Source: Candidatus Saccharimonadota bacterium
Lineage (GTDB): Bacteria > Patescibacteriota > Saccharimonadia > CAILAD01 > BJGX01
NCBI GenBank assembly: GCA_046350735.1
Contig: JAXLZU010000001.1
Span: 384,967 to 448,966 of the forward strand
Direction: 5' to 3'
DNA: 64,000 nucleotides
The notes below the pieces were generated by a model. That model did not search any database, was not told the DNA's origin, and was given only the letters and a program-made list of their open reading frames with translations. Below are positions 39,977 to 49,240 of this stretch, piece by piece. Numbering within the stretch: position 1 is the first letter of the stretch; every line of letters starts with the position of its first letter. Position numbers and translations under genes: made by a program.

Positions 39977-41356
39977 ATGTTAAGCCTGTATAATGCTCTC
40001 ACTCGGAGCAAAAAACTTTTTAAACCAATAAAACCCAAGCACGTCACTATGTATAGCTGTGGTCCAACAGTGTATGACCATGCTCATATTGGTAATTTGC
40101 GTGCCTATATCTTTGCCGATACTTTGCAGCGAGTATTGCGGGTTATAGAAGGCTATAGTGTTGATTGGGTAATGAATATAACCGATGTAGACGACAAAAT
40201 GATAGCTAGAATAGAGCGCGATAACCCTAGTGAAGATCCAAATACTGCCTTGGGCATACTGGCCGATACGTATACAGATATCTTTGTTGATGATATTGAA
40301 AAGGTTGGTATTGAGCGAGCAGATATAGCCAAATTGCCTCGTGCAACCGACCATATTAAGGGCATGCAAGCTCTCATTGCTAAGTTACTTCGAGAGAAGA
40401 TTGCGTACGAAAGTGATGGTAGTTTTTACTTTAGTCTCGATGCCTACAAAAAATCAGGCAAAAAATATGGTGTCTTGGTAGATTTAGATTATCAAGCCAA
40501 AGCTAGAGTAACGGACGACCAAGACCAGAAAGAAGGTGTAGCAGATTTTGTACTCTGGAAGGCCAAGAAAAAAGGTGAACCATATTGGGATTTTGATTAT
40601 CTTGGCAAGAATTATCCAGGACGGCCTGGTTGGCATATAGAATGCTCAGTAATGAGCACACAGTATCTAGGCTCGGTATTCGACATCCACACCGGTGGAG
40701 TAGATTTAAAGTTTCCACATCACGAAAACGAGATTGCGCAGTGTGGTGGTCACCAAGCCAACTTTTTTGTACATAACGAGCATTTACAAGTAGAGAGTGC
40801 AAAGATGAGTAAAAGCCTTGGTAATACAACCAAGCTAGCAGACGTGCCCGACCCACTAGCATTTCGTCTGCTTTGTCTGCAAGCTCACTATAGAAGCCAG
40901 ATGGACTACTCTAAGAAAGCCTTGCTGGCCGCACACGAAAGACTACAAAACCTTCGAGCCTATGTTGATCAATTAGTCTTGGCAGGCGAGCATCAGTTAC
41001 CAGTTGCGGACGATTCTGGCATAACAACACAGTTTTGGCAGATATTTACTGCAAGCATGGAGGACGATCTTAATACTTCTGCTGCTCTAGCGGCGTTAGC
41101 TGCAATTGAAGGTAAGGTGTTCTCTGGCCAAACTCTTGAAATACTAAGAAAGGTAGATGCAGTACTTGGATTGCAGTTAATAGACGAAACACCAATTAGC
41201 TCTGAAGCTCGTGCACTGTTAGCAGATTACCAGGAAGCGCGTGAAGCCAAAGAGTATCTAACGTCAGATAAATTGCGCGAAGAGTTACGTTCTAAGTATC
41301 TACTACAAGTATCTGACACTCCATATGGACCGCTCGTAAATAGAATTCGCAAATAA
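39977..41356 (+). CDS. cysS: Cysteinyl-tRNA synthetase
   Basis: HIGN and KMSKS motifs. Zinc-ligand Cys (CGPT, HIEC). Confidence 0.95.
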
Positions 41357-41363
41357 AATAAAA

Positions 41364-41383
41364 CCCCAATCTTTCGATTGGGG
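41364..41383. terminator. Hairpin ccccaatc-tttc-gattgggg, terminator for the minus-strand mini-gene operon (T-run on the minus strand) and possibly cysS
   Basis: Read directly. AAATAAAA precedes on the + strand, which gives a U-run on the minus strand. Confidence 0.55.
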
Positions 41384-41387
41384 AATA

Positions 41388-41645
41388 TTAAGTCTGAATA
41401 GGGCCTTCACATTCCTTACAGACATAACCAAGACCTTGGCAACTACCGCAAACGGCATCTTGTCGTGAGCGAGTAGACAAAGATGCCGGATCGCCCCTGC
41501 CATGACATGTCCAACATGTCTTGGTTCCTGTATGAGAGGTGTCTAGAGTGCATTCTCCCTTTCGAGCCATTGCTACCTCTTGGGTGTGTAGGTGTGGGTG
41601 TGTGATTTGTAATGTCTGTAGCGCCAACGAAGGCCAAACCAACAA
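41388..41645 (-). CDS. Small DnaJ-type zinc-finger protein (two CxxCxGxG repeats)
   Basis: CWTCHGRG and CGSCQGLG plus CKEC. A strong SD sequence AGAGGT precedes the internal ATG at 41570 (MARKGEC...), so the real protein may be 60 aa (41388..41570). Confidence 0.5.
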   Translation of the reverse strand: MLVWPSLALQTLQITHPHLHTQEVAMARKGECTLDTSHTGTKTCWTCHGRGDPASLSTRSRQDAVCGSCQGLGYVCKECEGPIQT

Positions 41646-41675
41646 AATGCTAGCCAGAGAATTACTCCCACAGCA

Positions 41676-41786
41676 TTACTCATTGTCGTATGGTTCTCTA
41701 AACCGTTTCCGCACAGGCGAAAAGGCGAGGGCAAACAAGAGAACGACAAAAGCTACAAAAAGCAATATCGAATACCAACTACTCAT
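41676..41786 (-). CDS. 36-aa single-TM mini-protein MSSWYSILLFVAFVVLLFALAFSPVRKRFREPYDNE
   Basis: Paralogous to the adjacent 36-aa peptide. Its ATG lies inside the upstream peptide stop (GATGAGTAG). Confidence 0.45.
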   Translation of the reverse strand: MSSWYSILLFVAFVVLLFALAFSPVRKRFREPYDNE

Positions 41787-41889
41787 CGTCACTCAACTCT
41801 TTGTAGTGCCTACGAACAGGGTAAAGCAAAACTAGAAACAGTAGTGCAAAACCAATAATTAGCAGAGCAGCTCCAAAGACATTACCCAT
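41779..41889 (-). CDS. 36-aa single-TM mini-protein MGNVFGAALLIIGFALLFLVLLYPVRRHYKELSDDE
   Basis: Same architecture as its neighbour: TM helix then a basic/acidic tail (PVRRHYKELSDDE vs PVRKRFREPYDNE). Start overlaps the upstream stop (AAATGGGTAA). Confidence 0.45.
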   Translation of the reverse strand: MGNVFGAALLIIGFALLFLVLLYPVRRHYKELSDDE

Positions 41890-42010
41890 TTGGGGCATCT
41901 TTCTTGTCTGTAGTTCGGGGAATTCTTACATCAGTACAGAGTGCCCAAATTATAGTGCCAATAAGTAGTACTGCTACAACAAACAGAATAAGATCAATAC
42001 TTATCTTCAT
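41882..42010 (-). CDS. 42-aa single-TM mini-protein MKISIDLILFVVAVLLIGTIIWALCTDVRIPRTTDKKDAPNG
   Basis: ATG overlaps the TGA stop of the 126-aa upstream ORF (cgATGAag). Confidence 0.4.
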   Translation of the reverse strand: MKISIDLILFVVAVLLIGTIIWALCTDVRIPRTTDKKDAPNG

Positions 42011-42387
42011 CGCTTCCGCCTTTGCTCATCTCGGTACTCTTGTTCGGCTGCCCTGAGACCAACCTCGATCTCTACCATACGCACTACATCACTCTTGGCA
42101 GCTTCGCGATCGGCGCGACCACCAGGAGTGATTGGCTCGGTATCATCACCAACGTAGCTAAACCAAGTGCTACGAGCACTACCTGTTCCAAGCTGAATGT
42201 ACCCTAGAGAAACTCCATCCTCGCTAAAGTAGCGACACGTTCTAGCTTCGTTCAGCCAGTATGGCTCGCTTGGTACAGTTGGAGCAAATTCAAACTCTGG
42301 ACTATCTGGTGCGTTCGTCACGGCTCCTCCGGAAATGTGGGGTGCAAAAACTGTGCCAATTATACTAAAAAAATATATTTTAGACAA
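42007..42387 (-). CDS. Hypothetical protein with an N-terminal hydrophobic segment and a basic C-terminus
   Basis: First gene of the minus-strand mini-gene operon. No motif recognised. Confidence 0.3.
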   Translation of the reverse strand: MSKIYFFSIIGTVFAPHISGGAVTNAPDSPEFEFAPTVPSEPYWLNEARTCRYFSEDGVSLGYIQLGTGSARSTWFSYVGDDTEPITPGGRADREAAKSDVVRMVEIEVGLRAAEQEYRDEQRRKR

Positions 42388-42427
42388 GTTTGATTATTAG
42401 CTTAAATATAAGCGGTATAATATAGCT

Positions 42428-43648
42428 ATGCAAAAGGTTACATTGCCACAAGAGAAGGCTATTTCTGCTTACAAAGATTTAGTTTCTAAAGACATATTAG
42501 AAGAATTGCATCAATTATCTTCTAGGCTGAAGGGCAAGAAGGTTGTCGAAATTAACGCTACTAGCTTTGGAGGTGGAGTAGCAGAATTATTACGCAGCCA
42601 AGTACCACTAATGAGAGAGCTTGGTATAGATGTGGACTGGTATGTATTACCTCCTGACGATCGGTTTTTTACCACTACCAAGCAGTTACATAATTGTTTA
42701 CAGGGTATCTGCCCATTACACCCAGAAATAGATCTAGATTACTATCAAGCGTATTCCGATGGTATAGCCAAACATTTGCCAGAAGCAGATATTTATATTT
42801 TGCACGACCCACAGACGCTTGGGTTGGCAAAGCATCTTAAAGCAAAGCACGTTGTCTGGCGTTGTCATATTGACCTAAGCGATGCCGATACTGCCACACA
42901 TGATTGGCTAAAACAACATTATCAGCATATTACTAAGGCTATTTTTTCTCTCGAGGCCTATGTGCATGGTTTAGATAGGGCTAAGACAGCTATTGTACAT
43001 CCTGCAATAGACCCATTTAACAAAAAAAATCGCTTACTCACCCAAGAAGAGTGTCGTGTTATTATTGCTCGACAAGCAATAGATCAAAACCGACCCTATA
43101 TATTACAGGTCTCACGCTTTGATAAATTTAAAGACCCACTTGGTGTATTACATATTTTTGCAGAACTAAAAAAACGAGTGCCAGACTTGCAGTGTGTATT
43201 GATGGGTAATTATGCTACCGACGACCCGGAGGGAATCGAGTACTATAAGGTAGTGCATACGTTGGCAAAAAAAGTAGATCCGTATAATGCTCATATTATT
43301 GTTCAGGCAGACGACCTAACAATTAATGCTTTTCAACGTCAGGCAGTAGTGGTTATACAAAACTCCACCAAGGAAGGGTTTGGCTTAACGGTAACAGAGG
43401 CCCTCTGGAAGAAAAAAATTGTATTCTCTCGACCAGTAGGCGGCATAGCTCTGCAGATAATTAACAACAAAACGGGGTATTACTTAACCGATAATACCAA
43501 TACATCGGCACACAAGATTGCTGAGGTTTTGTCTGACGATAGTGCTAACCAAAAGCACATTACCCAGACAGCACATCAGCTGGTGAGAAAGCGATTTATT
43601 ACACCCATAATGGTACGAGATTATTTACGGGTATACTCTACCGAATAG
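42428..43648 (+). CDS. GT4-family (GT-B) glycosyltransferase, sucrose-synthase/TreT-like
   Basis: GT-B C-terminal donor-binding region (EGFGLTVTEALWKKKIVFSRPVGGI). 406 aa. Confidence 0.5.
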   Translation: MQKVTLPQEKAISAYKDLVSKDILEELHQLSSRLKGKKVVEINATSFGGGVAELLRSQVPLMRELGIDVDWYVLPPDDRFFTTTKQLHNCLQGICPLHPEIDLDYYQAYSDGIAKHLPEADIYILHDPQTLGLAKHLKAKHVVWRCHIDLSDADTATHDWLKQHYQHITKAIFSLEAYVHGLDRAKTAIVHPAIDPFNKKNRLLTQEECRVIIARQAIDQNRPYILQVSRFDKFKDPLGVLHIFAELKKRVPDLQCVLMGNYATDDPEGIEYYKVVHTLAKKVDPYNAHIIVQADDLTINAFQRQAVVVIQNSTKEGFGLTVTEALWKKKIVFSRPVGGIALQIINNKTGYYLTDNTNTSAHKIAEVLSDDSANQKHITQTAHQLVRKRFITPIMVRDYLRVYSTE

Positions 43649-43840: not shown

Positions 43841-44098
43841 ATGTCAAAAAAATTATTTGTAGGAAACCTATCCTACGGCGTTACCGACGAATCATTAAAA
43901 GAATTTTTTGAAGGTGTTGGTACTGTAGAATCAGCCAAAGTAATAACTGACCGCGAAACCGGCCGCTCACGTGGTTTTGGGTTTGTAGAAATGAGCAGCG
44001 AAGACGAAGCTAAAAAAGCTATCGACGAGCTCAACGAAAAAGAACTAGACGGACGCGCAATTAGCGTTAACGAAGCTCGACCACAAGAAGAACGCTAA
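43841..44098 (+). CDS. RRM-type glycine-poor RNA-binding protein
   Basis: RNP2 KLFVGNL and RNP1 RGFGFVEM. 85 aa. ~190-nt 5' UTR. Confidence 0.85.
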   Translation: MSKKLFVGNLSYGVTDESLKEFFEGVGTVESAKVITDRETGRSRGFGFVEMSSEDEAKKAIDELNEKELDGRAISVNEARPQEER

Positions 44099-44154: not shown

Positions 44155-44883
44155 TTATTGAATATCTTTATGTTGGCGGCCAAGGCTACCCACTACCAGT
44201 GCCACACCGGCAACCAAGTATATTTGTCCAATAATAGATTCAGAGACAGCTAACATACGCCCAAGATTGCTGGCTGCTACAAAATCGCCAAAGCCAACCG
44301 TAGTTAAGCAAGAGTAGCTAAAATAAACATATATAACTTGTTGCTGTACGTCTTGCCCGGCAAAGTAATTCCCATTAGAAGCTATACCTAGCAGGGCATA
44401 AACAGCTGCAAAGAACAGCCCTATTTGTAGGTATATACAGAGCGCGCCAAACACTGTCGATATATTAATTTTGGCATGCCGAATAAGCCGACGAATAATA
44501 AGAGCAATAATAGATAGATCTAATAGTATTGCCACAATGTATGCAGGTATTTTGGCATACTGATTAAAACCATTCATTGGGTAGTAGTGGTCTATTGTTA
44601 CTACTGAGGCAGCTGTAGCAATAAAGATAACCAGCCAAAGTGCAATAAAAGACTTACCACGAATGTGAATTCCAGATGAGCGCAGCGCTATAAATAGTGT
44701 AAGAATTTGTATTACTACTGCTACAAGAAGAACAAGTCGATGGCTAAAGCCACTCATCAAGATTAACTGCAGCAAGATAAGTATAAGTAATACACCATAT
44801 CTATCGAGACCAAAAAGGTGTTTACGCCAGTCTGAGCTAAACTCTTTCTCTATAGCCTTTTCTTCGTTTATGAAGTGACTCAT
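44155..44883 (-). CDS. Potassium channel family protein
   Basis: Selectivity filter TTVGFGD. Multiple TM helices. Confidence 0.7.
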   Translation of the reverse strand: MSHFINEEKAIEKEFSSDWRKHLFGLDRYGVLLILILLQLILMSGFSHRLVLLVAVVIQILTLFIALRSSGIHIRGKSFIALWLVIFIATAASVVTIDHYYPMNGFNQYAKIPAYIVAILLDLSIIALIIRRLIRHAKINISTVFGALCIYLQIGLFFAAVYALLGIASNGNYFAGQDVQQQVIYVYFSYSCLTTVGFGDFVAASNLGRMLAVSESIIGQIYLVAGVALVVGSLGRQHKDIQ

Positions 44884-45605: not shown

Positions 45606-47096
45606 TCATTTTGTAACCTCCATTAATTTACGTGTTTCTAAGACATTTTCCGCGATTGCACGAGCGAAATTCGTGTATTTAACAGATAGAGCACCTCCTT
45701 TTAATGTTACATCAGCGAAAAGTTTTGATATTATCAGCCTTTTTTGATCCGGCGACTTTTTGCAATAGATTCCAGCAGCCTTTTGCGATAGTTCTAGTAG
45801 GACGAGCCTTTGTTGCAGGCTCTTTGATAGTGAGTTATCCAGCTTGCTCAGTTTTCCACCAAGCTCTGTGAGTTGATCTGTGAACTGCTGGTGCTTTTCC
45901 TCGTACTTAGCTTGAGGTATGTCGCCGGATAACTTGTCATCATACAAACCCTCATCCATACGCTTAATACGGTCAATTTGGAGCTGGATGGAGGCTTGCA
46001 GCCTATCTTGGCCTTCTACCGTATCCTGGTAGTGCTCACGCATGGCATTAGCCACCCAGTCAATAATCGCTGGCGAGGGACAAATAAGCTTTTCTAACAT
46101 TTCAACGATCATTTGCTCAACTCGGTCTTCACGAAGTAGTTTGACGGTCTTACAAGTCTCACTACGACGCTTACAGACGCCGTAGTAGCGGCCTTTTTGC
46201 AACTGCCAAGTTACGGCAGTGCCACAGTCTTCACAGCGGATGAGACTCTTCAATGGCGGGTTATGTCGAACATAGACCAACGGCCGGCCTTTGTGCATTT
46301 TATGTTGTACCTTTTCAAACAAGTCTTTACTAATTATGGGTTCTTGGGCGCCTGGATAGTCTTTACCATTAAAGCGGTTAATGCCGATGTAAAATGGATT
46401 CGTTAATATCTTCTGCACCTGACTTTTCGCGTAAGGCCTACCTTTACGAGTCGTAATGCCCATTAGTTTCATTTCTTCAGCAACTGATGCTATGGAATGG
46501 TTTGGCTCGATATACTTCTTAAAGATCTCTTGCATTAGGCTGGTGGTCGCCGGATCAGGCACGTGAATACGTTTGCCACCTTCAACGATGGTTATGTAGC
46601 CCGGGGGTGGTACTGAGGGCAACCAGCCTTGGGCAAGCTTCTCAGCCCAACCCTTCATGGCTTCTTCACGGAGGTTGTCGGTGTACTTTTTAGCAACAGA
46701 TATATGGATATTCCACATAAACTTAACATCTGACTTGGCATTCTTGTGGAGTAATAAGTTCTCTTTAACAGCATGGAGTCTTCGGTTATCGTCTGTTTCT
46801 AACCAATCATCGATAGCTACTGCATCGCGAAAGTTTCGAGTAAACCGATCAGTTTTCTCAATAGCTAAGTGATAGATGTTGTTTTTAGAGATATAGGCTA
46901 GGAGTTCGTGGAAAACCTTACGGCTCTGTTCTTTTGAAGCCGTTTCAGCAATTTTAAAGACTTTAACAACCTTCAAGTCCTTATTTTCGCAATAGCCTTG
47001 TAGCAGCTTTAGTTGGGAATCTAACGAATAACCTTCATCTTCTTGGGACTTACTGGAGACTCGAGCTAGTATGACCGCGTTGAACTGTTGATCCAT
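45606..47096 (-). CDS. Large serine recombinase (resolvase catalytic domain + recombinase domain + zinc ribbon)
   Basis: AVILARVSSKSQ catalytic-Ser motif. 496 aa. C-terminal Cys cluster (CEDCGT...CKRRSETC). Coiled coil. Confidence 0.85.
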   Translation of the reverse strand: MDQQFNAVILARVSSKSQEDEGYSLDSQLKLLQGYCENKDLKVVKVFKIAETASKEQSRKVFHELLAYISKNNIYHLAIEKTDRFTRNFRDAVAIDDWLETDDNRRLHAVKENLLLHKNAKSDVKFMWNIHISVAKKYTDNLREEAMKGWAEKLAQGWLPSVPPPGYITIVEGGKRIHVPDPATTSLMQEIFKKYIEPNHSIASVAEEMKLMGITTRKGRPYAKSQVQKILTNPFYIGINRFNGKDYPGAQEPIISKDLFEKVQHKMHKGRPLVYVRHNPPLKSLIRCEDCGTAVTWQLQKGRYYGVCKRRSETCKTVKLLREDRVEQMIVEMLEKLICPSPAIIDWVANAMREHYQDTVEGQDRLQASIQLQIDRIKRMDEGLYDDKLSGDIPQAKYEEKHQQFTDQLTELGGKLSKLDNSLSKSLQQRLVLLELSQKAAGIYCKKSPDQKRLIISKLFADVTLKGGALSVKYTNFARAIAENVLETRKLMEVTK

Positions 47097-47104
47097 AACA
47101 ACCT

Positions 47105-47267
47105 CTTAAATAGCTCCCGCTAAGACTTCAAAGAAGTTTATGAGCGACTCGCCGACCTCTAGAGCTTCATCATAGCTAATTGACCGTTTTTGTTTTGTTT
47201 CGAGAATTTTACGGAGTACTTCGATACTATCAGTTGATAGTGTTTCGGTACTTTCTTGATTGTTCAT
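47105..47267 (-). CDS. 53-aa ORF directly upstream of the recombinase; possible recombination-directionality or regulatory mini-protein
   Basis: MNNQESTETLSTDSIEVLRKILETKQKRSISYDEALEVGESLINFFEVLAGAI. Below the ORF-track cut-off. Position only. Confidence 0.2.
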
Positions 47268-47379
47268 TCTGGATACCCTCCAATGCTTATAAGGATAGTA
47301 TACTACGCCTATAGGGATAGTTACAAGGGGTTTTCCACAGTAATTTTTAACTATTTTTCAGTGTATCTTTACAGCTAAT

Positions 47380-47826
47380 TTGTTTGGTTTTAACGGGGTT
47401 AAAGCAATTATGGCGTATAATAACGGTATGAAATCGCAGGCCGAGAACGATGTTAGAGACACGATAATCAATCCGTATTACGCGGTAACACTTGCTGACT
47501 ATCTATTTGAGGCTAAGAAGACAGCACTGGTCAAAGAAGACTGGGTACTTGCAAACACCAAGCTTATAAAGGAAATGGGCTCTTCCAACTGGCTAAAGCA
47601 GTTACTGGTAACGCTCACTACAGAACCGTCAGAAAATCTTACCCATATGGTGATGAGCCCGCGTCAAGCTGTGACGCTTTCTGAAAGATTAGCCGGTAAG
47701 CACGATCCTACAATAGATACTGCCTCGTGGATTAAAGCCAATGTGAAGTTAATTGATGAACTCGGCGCAGAGCAGTGGTTATGGCAACTACTCAAAGTTT
47801 TAGAGACAGGTGGCGTAGTCGAATAA
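47380..47826 (+). CDS. Hypothetical protein built from two ~50-aa internal repeats
   Basis: NPYYAVTLADYLFEAKK...WVLANTKLIKEMGSSNWLKQLLVTL versus SPRQAVTLSERLAGKHD...WIKANVKLIDELGAEQWLWQLLKVL. Confidence 0.35.
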   Translation: MFGFNGVKAIMAYNNGMKSQAENDVRDTIINPYYAVTLADYLFEAKKTALVKEDWVLANTKLIKEMGSSNWLKQLLVTLTTEPSENLTHMVMSPRQAVTLSERLAGKHDPTIDTASWIKANVKLIDELGAEQWLWQLLKVLETGGVVE

Positions 47827-48047
47827 AGGCATTTTAGGCCTCAAAAGTAATCCAAAATAAGCTTTCATAATTGTCCCCATGGGCGGGGACACTTTTTGAC
47901 TTGAGTATATCTGTTGGTATAGAATACTTGTATCTTCTACCTATTAAAGTATCGGAGTAGGAGGGGTAGGCATATTATCACCTCATCATCGTGAACCCAT
48001 GCTGCCCTTAACTTTAAAACTACTTCATTAACTATGCTCCATCTACT

Positions 48048-48833
48048 ATGAACTCTTCAAAAATTACTAGCAAACAACAAGCAATAATACAATTACTCTA
48101 CAAACACAGATTCTTAGACAGAACCCATATCCAGGCATTACTACACCACAAAGACAAACGACGTATTTTTGCTTGGCTGAAAGATCTTCGGGAAAAGGAA
48201 TACATCGAATGGATCTATGACAAGAACGATTTTGCCAACAAGACGAAACCTGCAGTTTACTATCTCGGTCTGAACGGCATACGATACCTCAGAACCCTCA
48301 ATGAGTATCCATCGACTGAACTACGCAAACGCTACAAAGAATCCTCACGACAGCAATCGTTCATTGGTCGCTGCCTGACACTAGCCGACTGTTGCATTAC
48401 CGCGGGAACCAAAAGTATTGGCGATGTGCAGTATTCATACGCATTAGAAGCAGACTACACCAAGCCTAATAACGAATACTACTTTTTAAATGAACTAAAA
48501 CCGCATTTGTGTTTTACCAAGCAGGATAGCACTGAACACAAGAGTTACTTACTGGAGGTGTTTGATACGACCACACCCAGCTACATGCTTAAGAAACGAC
48601 TAAAAGACTACATTGAATATCTTGATAGTGGCGAGTGGGAAGATGCGACTGGAGATAGCCAACCACCAATTGTACTGATGGCTTGTACGACTACCGCTGA
48701 TCTTCTCTATGCCAAACACCGAACTCGCACGTTACTAGAAGATGCTGGCAACGATAATCTTCATATTCGCTTCGCTACTCTCGAGAGACTCAGACAACAT
48801 GGTGTTACTGGAATAATTTGGGAAGAAACCTAG
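48048..48833 (+). CDS. Replication-relaxation family protein (winged-helix, plasmid/ICE-type)
   Basis: N-terminal QQAIIQLLYKHRFLDRTHIQALL...IFAWLKDLREKEYIEW typical of this family. Confidence 0.5.
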   Translation: MNSSKITSKQQAIIQLLYKHRFLDRTHIQALLHHKDKRRIFAWLKDLREKEYIEWIYDKNDFANKTKPAVYYLGLNGIRYLRTLNEYPSTELRKRYKESSRQQSFIGRCLTLADCCITAGTKSIGDVQYSYALEADYTKPNNEYYFLNELKPHLCFTKQDSTEHKSYLLEVFDTTTPSYMLKKRLKDYIEYLDSGEWEDATGDSQPPIVLMACTTTADLLYAKHRTRTLLEDAGNDNLHIRFATLERLRQHGVTGIIWEET

Positions 48834-49240
48834 CCAGAATTTGCATCAATATAGTCAAGAACTCTCTGTCGAAGCAGCTCACAACGTTTGATGGTCTTAT
48901 CGCTATCTCCTAGTGACTCACGATCAAGCACCTCGAATTCGCGGACTGATGATCCTTGCGGGAATTGCTGCCAGGTTAGATCAATGTGGAAGAGTGTTCC
49001 ATTGACAGACAGACCATTCCAGAAATGCTTATCTGCACTTCTGCTCATACCAGTCCATACCCATCCTTTAATAATTTCCATTTGAGGGAAGAATGACTGA
49101 ACAACCCAAGCTGTCGGGTAGCATTGGCCAAGAGCCGGGTTACCTTTCTGAGCAACGCCTAGATATGAAGTCTTTTTATCCCAAGATGCCTCAAGGGCTT
49201 CTCGTAAGTGAAGCAGATCGATATTTTGGTCTTTTGACAT
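48830..49240 (-). CDS. Hypothetical protein, possible papain-like/transglutaminase-like Cys-His hydrolase
   Basis: GQCYPTAW followed by HFWNG/FHIDLTW. Weak. Confidence 0.25.
   Translation of the reverse strand: MSKDQNIDLLHLREALEASWDKKTSYLGVAQKGNPALGQCYPTAWVVQSFFPQMEIIKGWVWTGMSRSADKHFWNGLSVNGTLFHIDLTWQQFPQGSSVREFEVLDRESLGDSDKTIKRCELLRQRVLDYIDANSG

Follow-up and report, generated by a model that had tools for sequence, protein, structure and literature searches.

Organisation of the operon

The 64,000-nucleotide stretch analysed here (the window), from the Candidatus Saccharimonadota bacterium genome GCA_046350735.1, contains a minus-strand transcription unit of about 1 kb between cysS and a treT-like glycosyltransferase gene. 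It encodes six proteins in the order A-m1-m2-m3-m4-Z (Table 1), of which m1 to m4 are mini-proteins and Z is a zinc-finger-like protein. The six genes are genuine: they are coding and conserved, and they form a coupled, fast-evolving operon that is restricted to one genus. All of the features described by an initial annotation of this region are located on the minus strand, and the underlying observation is thus confirmed.

The first gene had been read as an open reading frame (ORF) of 126 amino acids (aa), which exists, but its likely start is GTG 42321, so that A has 104 residues. This start lies 4 nt past an invariant GGAGG, is replaced by ATG at the same position in the other four loci described below, and yields the form of A present in public protein sets (P0001). 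The description of start codons lying within the preceding stop codons holds for the three junctions reported, ATGA, ATGGGTAA and ATGAGTAG. Three mini-proteins with a single transmembrane (TM) segment had been counted and all three are present, but the number is four, m4 having been overlooked; the CA-rich sequence taken for a spacer is in fact coding and corresponds to the 3′ end of m4, which specifies its tail. The zinc-finger protein, for which a length of 60-85 aa had been given, is likewise present, but the 85-aa form is dropped in favour of the 60 residues that follow ATG 41570, a start preceded by AAGAGG and situated 4 nt past the m4 stop.

An AAGGCGG-like Shine-Dalgarno (SD) sequence is found upstream of m1, and m2, m3 and m4 have none, so that the translation of each of these three would depend on the preceding ORF. 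The number of promoter-like sites in the region (2) does not exceed that of shuffled sequences (mean 2.3); the -35 core, the TATAAT, the 5′ untranslated region and the SD of gene A are conserved or invariant across the five aligned loci. The terminator reported after Z corresponds to a terminator-like hairpin (41383..41364), which is common to all five loci and appears in six-frame translation as ‘(P)IER(L/S)G(F/V)’. No Rfam family matches at threshold.

Table 1. Coordinates of the operon features, of the listed open reading frames and of neighbouring genes in the window.
Feature	Position	Strand	Description
Candidate promoter	42359..42387	-	TTGTCT, 17-nt spacer, TATAAT; 10/12 consensus positions
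Gene A	42007..42321	-	104 aa, GTG start; TGA stop overlaps m1 ATG (ATGA)
m1	41882..42010	-	42 aa; TM 7-25; D-V/T-R-I-P tail motif
m2	41779..41889	-	36 aa, single TM; ATG overlaps m1 stop (ATGGGTAA)
m3	41676..41786	-	36 aa, single TM; ATG overlaps m2 stop (ATGAGTAG)
m4	41573..41683 (also given as 41576-41683)	-	36 aa; ATG overlaps m3 stop (ATGAGTAA)
Z	41388..41570	-	60 aa, ATG; DnaJ-cysteine-rich-domain-like zinc finger
Putative intrinsic terminator	41364..41383	-	8-bp stem (5 G-C pairs), then T-run
Listed ORF	42007..42387	-	126 aa, TTG start
Listed ORF	41882..42010	-	42 aa
Listed ORF	41779..41898	-	39 aa
Listed ORF	41676..41792	-	38 aa
Listed ORF	41388..41645	-	85 aa, TTG start
Antisense ORF	41539..41835	+	98 aa
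cysS	39977..41356	+	
treT-like gene	42428..43648	+	glycosyltransferase
RRM gene	43841-44098		85 aa, single RRM (RRM_1, E 2e-27)
Ion-channel gene	44155-44883		242 aa, Ion_trans_2
Large serine recombinase	45606..47096	-	Resolvase, Recombinase, Zn_ribbon_recom domains
Replic_Relax gene	48048..48833	+	

Coding status and sequence constraint

Five distinct loci carry the operon between treT and cysS, namely those of the window genome (G000; 895 kb in three contigs), of its genus mates G013 and G014, and of two metagenome contigs, L007 and L008 (further records are duplicates: L009 has the sequence of L008, L005 and L006 are the G013 and G014 loci, and L003 equals L005). Compared with the order A, m1, m2, m3, m4, Z in G000, the genes are arranged as A, m1, m3, m4, Z in G014, as A, m1, m3-like, m4, Z in L008, as A, m1, m3, Z in L007, and as A, m1, m2 followed by a fused m4-Z in G013. 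In all five versions the start of each mini-ORF lies inside the stop codon of the preceding gene or a few nucleotides past it, and the small ORFs, for which the initial annotation had named a lack of protein conservation in relatives as the decisive counter-finding, are conserved there as proteins.

The ratios of nonsynonymous to synonymous differences (pN/pS) calculated for these genes are uncorrected and, with a pS of 0.4-0.9 that places synonymous sites near saturation, rough. Most pairs give values below 1; the ratios amount to 0.28-0.37 for A, 0.16-0.29 for Z within each of its two types, 0.21-0.27 for the m3 orthologs of G000, G014 and L007 (0.41-0.53 in pairs with L008), 0.33-0.72 for m4 and 0.43-1.13 for m1; the m2 ortholog in G013 has a pN of 0.30. 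Between G000 and G014, 28 of the 36 residues of m3 are identical (a hand count in the alignment) versus 63% for A, and the constraint on m3, as judged from these alignments, is at least equal to that on A.

The arrangement is also singular within its genome. Among the 647 TM-like ORFs (28-60 aa) that its two strands contain, the sole chain of at least three coupled by stop/start junctions is this cassette, chains of two numbering four. Furthermore, profile searches of 18,518 six-frame ORFs found no other copies of m1, m2/m3, m4 or Z, the next-best E values being 0.29, 0.032, 0.33 and 0.35, respectively. The exact m1 sequence has already been called as a gene in public protein sets, on 13 contigs. 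Absent from those sets are m2, m3 and m4, which were sought as six boundary variants, including both the 36- and 39-aa forms of m2 (the latter from the upstream ATG 41898) and the 36- and 38-aa forms of m3. Contigs of X18 (41917-42088) and X20 (41565-41730) match at full identity; the four RNA-labelled runs are flagged ‘probably DNA’ and are taken as silent on transcription.

That A and Z should be the only genes, separated by a non-coding spacer in which ORFs occur by chance, is scarcely credible, even though the absence of m2, m3 and m4 from public protein sets and the lack of family matches would accord with it. At a pS of 0.4-0.9 the frames remain open and the junctions the same in five loci, the chain is unique in the genome, and the 98-aa antisense ORF of the region has no counterpart in G013.

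The mini-proteins and their tandem array

The proposal that the mini-proteins are single-pass membrane peptides is supported by their hydropathy and charge profiles. In every m1, m2 and m3 sequence the best 19-residue window has a mean Kyte-Doolittle hydropathy of 1.97-3.19, and the TM windows are flanked by 0-2 Lys/Arg residues on the N-terminal side and by 2-6 within 15 residues on the C-terminal side (m1 of G000, for example, has a mean hydropathy of 2.97, with one Lys/Arg ahead of the TM segment and four behind it). According to the positive-inside rule, a basic flank marks the cytoplasmic side of the membrane; because Lys/Arg residues are fewer before the TM segment than after it, the mini-proteins would be oriented with the N-terminus outside and the tail in the cytoplasm.

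m1 is present in all five loci (37-42 aa), and orthologs of m3 are found in G014, L007 and L008. The tails of m2 and m3 share a motif, P-V/L-R-K/R, after which comes a basic stretch; their ends are acidic. m4, which occurs in four of the five loci (none in L007) and in three of those four is a separate gene of 34-36 aa, combines a short hydrophobic anchor at its N-terminus with a basic tail, R-Y-K/R-x-Y; the invariant residues of m4 are I8, L9, W10, C14, L18, R21, Y22 and Y25, with the Cys inside the hydrophobic stretch. Two of the mini-proteins had been described as paralogs, and m2 and m3 do align with a BLASTP E value of 1e-6, gapless across 36 aa. For m3 and m4 the support for paralogy is weak (E = 0.004 over 18 aa), and neither of the two profiles, m2/m3 and m4, detects the other; m1 and m3 give no alignment.

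In G000 the start codons of m2 and m3, and likewise those of m3 and m4, are separated by 103 nt, a distance that recurs between m3 and m4 in G014 and L008. A unit of 103 nt equals 3n+1, and therefore each copy lies one frame on from the last, with the ATGAGTAA/G overlap between neighbours preserved. The loss of such a unit is illustrated by two wastewater runs of one study (X16 and X17), each of which contains one contig 95-99% identical to the window that lacks 41665-41779 (115 nt) but has 12 other letters; the net difference of 103 nt removes m3. By our own reading of the coordinates, this variant would leave the m2 stop overlapping the m4-type start, in frame. A near-identical strain that is short of one unit thus indicates that whole units are gained or lost without breaking the relay; the array would grow and shrink by 103-nt units, and one ribosome could traverse the whole series. 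The duplication is old: a TRF search for tandem repeats returned 0 rows, and the DNAs of the units are poorly alignable to one another.

The conserved coupling also calls for consideration of a purely regulatory role, in which the mini-ORFs would act as coupled upstream ORFs that set the expression level of Z and their peptide products would be functionless. Such a leader relay would explain why the stop/start overlaps are perfectly conserved and why Z is retained while the number of units varies between strains, and it would suit the dependence of m2, m3 and m4 on the preceding ORF. We regard it as very improbable all the same: m3 is constrained at the amino-acid level (pN/pS 0.21-0.27), every unit retains a hydrophobic core of TM grade and, close to the membrane, a basic motif, an SD of its own precedes Z in the four loci (of four) where Z is a separate gene, and in G013 the last unit belongs to the Z protein itself. 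On the evidence of the aligned proteins, amino-acid constraint and conserved hydrophobic cores contradict both this relay and the chance origin of the ORFs considered above.

The zinc-finger protein and its fusion to m4

Where it is separate, Z begins 4-14 nt past the m4 stop, with ATG (TTG in L008). It occurs in two types, one of 60 aa (G000 and L008) and one of 50 aa (G013, G014 and L007), which are 36-38% identical; 16 columns are invariant over the five loci, including seven Cys and four Gly. In the 50-aa type, four CxxCxGxG-like units are arranged as two pairs (1+2 and 3+4), the members of each being adjacent. The 60-aa type has three CxxC units, and in its unit 1 a conserved His, located a few residues further along, takes the place of the second Cys; the two CxxCxGxG repeats originally noted in the window are its two full motifs, to which the further CxxC and this conserved Cys/His pair have to be added.

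Among solved structures, the best sequence matches of Z are the cysteine-rich domains of DnaJ and Ydj1 (E 0.0015-0.0019). All scores against curated models lie below the respective cut-offs: for Pfam PF00684 (DnaJ_CXXCXGXG) the G000 protein scores 16.1 bits and those of the other type 20.0, 16.5 and 14.6 bits (threshold 32.7), and Z reaches 11.2-12 bits for Anti-TRAP (PF15777; cut-off 32), 13.3 bits for RtpA (NF058604; cut-off 65), 15 bits for the NCBIfam DnaJ models (cut-offs 338-556) and 17.8-22.9 bits for DUF7895 (cut-off 27). With its 50-60 residues Z consists of the Cys-rich part only, lacking both the J domain and the C-terminal substrate-binding domains, and does not qualify as a DnaJ (Hsp40) protein.

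In G013, m4 and Z are joined in frame as one ORF of 87 aa (loci L003/L005), a finding that favours the suggested partnership of membrane mini-proteins with a zinc-finger protein; a functional tie between them is supported, as far as gene structure can indicate it. Because the basic flank of the anchor lies on the Z side in this fusion, Z would be placed at the inner face of the membrane. No relatives of the 87-aa protein were found by sequence query, and the Atlas gave no usable match.

A profile search with Z returned Z itself and two marginal matches, P0020 (E 1.1e-5) and P0021 (2.7e-4). These are membrane-tethered Cys-rich mini-proteins, one with an N-terminal hydrophobic or lipobox-like leader and the other with a leader and a C-terminal TM helix (Pfam DUF7895). 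Membrane tethering of such zinc-knuckle modules may be common.

Protein A

A, whose five orthologs are 62-68% identical, lacks both a signal and a TM segment, and it matches no family of Pfam, PHROGs, NCBIfam or PADLOC. An AlphaFold2 model based on a 13-sequence alignment has a mean predicted local distance difference test (pLDDT) value of 85.7 and shows a disordered N-terminus, four strands and a long C-terminal helix (residues 72-103); the model obtained from five sequences is poor (pLDDT 51.6). The fold finds no match at E≤0.001 in the Protein Data Bank (PDB) with Foldseek, and the best Z score of VIA-align against 48,161 chains is 5.2, three chains reaching at least 5, which is within the noise stated for the tool. 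Similarly, BFVD gives 0 matches at E≤0.001 (best E 0.027) and the Atlas 0.87, both below the tools' own bars. As modelled, with confidence, A is an orphan soluble β/α protein of no known fold.

At the L008 locus (2426-2548; the same in L009) the ATG beside the conserved SD is out of frame with A, and an in-frame ATG follows 16 nt on, which reflects either a real frameshift or a shared assembly error.

Distribution, divergence and genomic setting

The cassette is narrowly distributed. A is found in 3 of 32 family genomes, all of one genus, in 3 of 401 sampled class genomes and in 1 of 401 phylum genomes, the window's own. A word-index search of 5.8 billion proteins yielded three clusters, and a full HMMER scan of 1.84 billion representatives yielded 11 matches at E≤0.001. 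Eight of these, of about 100 aa, were accepted, namely the G013 ortholog (P0004) and seven proteins 30-38% identical to A; P0008, P0011 and P0014, which are long repeat proteins, were set aside as spurious. The distant relatives of A are metagenomic singletons. The window stretch itself is found in activated-sludge and wastewater runs.

Within the genus, the operon evolves far more quickly than the genes around it: identity between G000 and G014/G013 is 91-92% for crtI, 82% for the C-terminus of cysS, 68-70% for treT, 62-63% for A and 36-38% for Z. This fast divergence, the variable presence of each of m2, m3 and m4, the two types of Z, its fused or split state and the patchy distribution (3/32 family and 3/401 class genomes) are what might be expected of a conflict or toxin-like module, in which the mini-proteins would be membrane-active (pore-forming or depolarising, in the manner of type I toxins or holin-like peptides) and A and/or Z would serve as regulator, immunity protein or trigger, for example in phage defence, in competition or in the relationship between epibiont and host. 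A polymorphic-toxin immunity protein and anti-CRISPR proteins are also among the structural neighbours of A, with matches that are weak and fall short of significance.

In known type I systems the toxin gene stands alone, is kept under tight repression and has an antisense RNA. The genes described here, in contrast, are polycistronic and translationally coupled to A, in a constitutive-looking operon behind a conserved, near-consensus promoter, and a crude consensus scan of 41200-42600, which is a weak test, detected nothing promoter-like on the plus strand. Furthermore, PADLOC models match 0 of 7 proteins (E up to 1), there are no defence, lysin or secretion genes among the neighbours, and selection on m3 is purifying rather than diversifying. 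Also in favour of such a module is a resemblance in size and shape: the type I toxins TisB, Hok, Fst, Ibs and Ldr are, according to PMC12648545, small hydrophobic single-helix peptides of <60 aa with short charged ends, and m1 to m3 are hydrophobic single-TM peptides of 36-42 aa. On balance we consider a conflict module rather unlikely.

The base composition of the cassette also sets it apart, its GC content of 0.47 compared with 0.415 for the genome placing it in the top 7% of windows, and GC is raised in three of the four other loci. This would be in keeping with former mobile-element or phage cargo (a ‘moron’), whose fixation at the treT-cysS site would date to the ancestor of the genus and whose function would be element-related, such as superinfection exclusion. 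The nearest structure and feature neighbours of A, although below the bars given above (BFVD E 0.027, Atlas 0.87), are small, uncharacterised proteins of phages; genes for a serine recombinase and a Replic_Relax protein are located 3-6 kb away, and other small lineage-specific genes occupy the treT-cysS gap of relatives. However, no relative was detected in IMG/VR, in 50,697 phage records (tblastn) or in PHROGs below E 0.02, there are no flanking direct repeats, and the chromosomal position is constant in five loci, with the conserved promoter of the operon's own. The treT, RRM, channel and DUF5684 genes, moreover, separate the recombinase region from the cassette, and such an origin appears improbable to us.

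The neighbours of the operon are cysS, the treT-like gene and, beyond treT, the RRM and ion-channel genes of Table 1, with no endolysin or other phage genes beside it. In L005 and L006 the cassette is accompanied by treT, the gene for DUF5684 and, in antisense, a trace of the RRM gene, and the channel gene was not seen. The large serine recombinase and the Replic_Relax protein suggest the presence of an integrated mobile element in the region of 45606-49240 of the window, 3-6 kb from the cassette.

The treT-cysS gap holds further small genes. An ORF of 130-154 aa with an N-terminal C-E-x-H...C-x-x-C and no Pfam family (L003 2468-2860, +; L004 520-912, -; L020 1016-1423, +; L022 965-1429, +) lies behind the Z terminator of G013 and G014 and adjoins treT in two other genera without the cassette; none was found in G000. 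In G011, of another genus of the same family, the gap contains a different small CxxC...CxxC protein (L023 1110-1394, -), which is Lar-like below cut-off (22.5 versus 28.6 bits). The gap seems to be a site at which small lineage-specific genes accumulate. An OR-like link to the carotenoid cluster of the window was rejected, crtI being present in 25 of 32 family genomes versus 3 of 32 for the cassette.

A proposed membrane platform for the zinc-finger protein

The reading that we prefer, tentatively and with slightly less conviction than doubt, is that the mini-proteins form a membrane platform that holds Z, and probably A, at the inner face. The four mini-proteins would span the cytoplasmic membrane, the N-terminus facing outwards and the C-terminus inwards, and would form or join a small platform, with Z and probably A associated with its cytoplasmic face. 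By its motifs, Z would be related to the cysteine-rich domain of DnaJ, without a J domain, and, if it binds zinc as these motifs suggest, would most likely act as a zinc-stabilised protein-binding module, of the holdase or thiol-active kind, tethered to the membrane.

Several observations weigh against this reading. The hydrophobic stretch of m4 is short, with a mean hydropathy of 1.38-2.04 (1.39 in G000), m1 is near-neutral in some pairs (pN/pS up to 1.13), and the acidic ends of the tails may be due in part to the overlapping start codon of the next gene. The Z proteins of G000 and L008 have a Cys...His pair instead of the first CxxC, and every curated family cut-off lies above the score of Z. 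The fusion is known from a single record of a metagenome-assembled genome, L003 being identical in sequence to L005, and may instead result from an assembly indel. No client membrane complex is encoded in or beside the operon, a transporter or oxidase being absent from the transcription unit, and a divergence far above that of the surroundings would equally fit a conflict-type function.

The platform reading draws on a known architecture. LQY1, CYO1 (SCO2), OR and ZnJ6 are DnaJ-like zinc-finger proteins anchored in the thylakoid membrane of plants and algae. Like these, the operon combines a short hydrophobic anchor with a J-domain-less CxxCxGxG zinc finger that follows it. As described in PMC4754418, LQY1 is a thylakoid protein with a TM domain and a C-terminal zinc finger of four CXXCXGXG repeats, which has disulfide-isomerase activity and binds photosystem II core subunits. 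Plants and algae have further proteins related to it, among them PSA2, ZnJ6, OR and FIP. In the operon this architecture is realised as one polypeptide in G013 only (87 aa), where Z is of the 50-aa type with four units; in G000, G014 and L008 the m4 anchor and Z are encoded separately, by neighbouring genes, and L007 lacks m4. Nor is there detectable homology past the motif, the Pfam scores lying below their cut-offs. Unlike LQY1, the operon is bacterial, with an orientation towards the cytoplasmic face that we infer from charge, and it includes extra mini-TM genes and the orphan A; no photosystem or other client was recognised for it.

Compared with the cysteine-rich domains of DnaJ and Ydj1 (PF00684; PDB 1EXK and 1NLT) and with Anti-TRAP (PF15777), Z has the same CxxCxGxG zinc-knuckle units. 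In contrast to DnaJ and Ydj1, it is without J or C-terminal domains, its units 1+2 and 3+4 are directly adjacent, and the G000 type lacks one Cys of unit 1.

A further comparison is offered by the small membrane proteins KdpF, AcrZ, CydX, MgrB and MgtR/S, which are encoded by single genes and are encoded with, or act on, a known large membrane complex. The mini-proteins of the operon differ in being encoded three or four in a row, by coupled genes each shifted in frame, in the company of a zinc finger and an orphan protein, with no gene for a large partner. They are equally small and have a single TM helix, KdpF and the other five being described in PMC12648545 as proteins of <50 aa with a single TM helix and no catalytic domain. 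The words ‘zinc’ and ‘tandem’ do not occur in the available part of that 2025 review of small membrane proteins, and a full-text literature search, judged on titles and the openings of abstracts, found no report of such an operon arrangement. By these comparisons the operon falls outside every family tested and would work most like the anchored DnaJ-like zinc fingers.

Implications

The interpretation offered by the initial annotation, a membrane mini-protein system with a zinc-finger partner, is thus supported in part. It is possible, though doubtful, that the operon amounts to an undescribed, rapidly evolving and genus-specific small-protein membrane system, consisting of a self-expanding out-of-frame array, a split or fused zinc finger and A, which would serve an epibiotic Saccharibacterium in conflict or in interaction with its host.

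Half of the genes (m2, m3 and m4) are outside public protein sets under the boundaries tried, although no protein of the operon is better conserved than m3, which makes this a clean case of functional genes of <40 aa overlooked by annotation in candidate-phyla-radiation genomes. The out-of-frame 103-nt unit is a simple and testable route by which arrays of coupled mini-genes can arise and vary between strains, and the split and fused states of m4 and Z provide a natural experiment on the membrane tethering of a zinc-finger module. Should the operon serve conflict, it would add a new module of that kind to a group of epibionts about whose accessory biology hardly anything is known; if it is a bacterial counterpart of the anchored zinc fingers of the LQY1/OR type, this design would extend beyond plastids.

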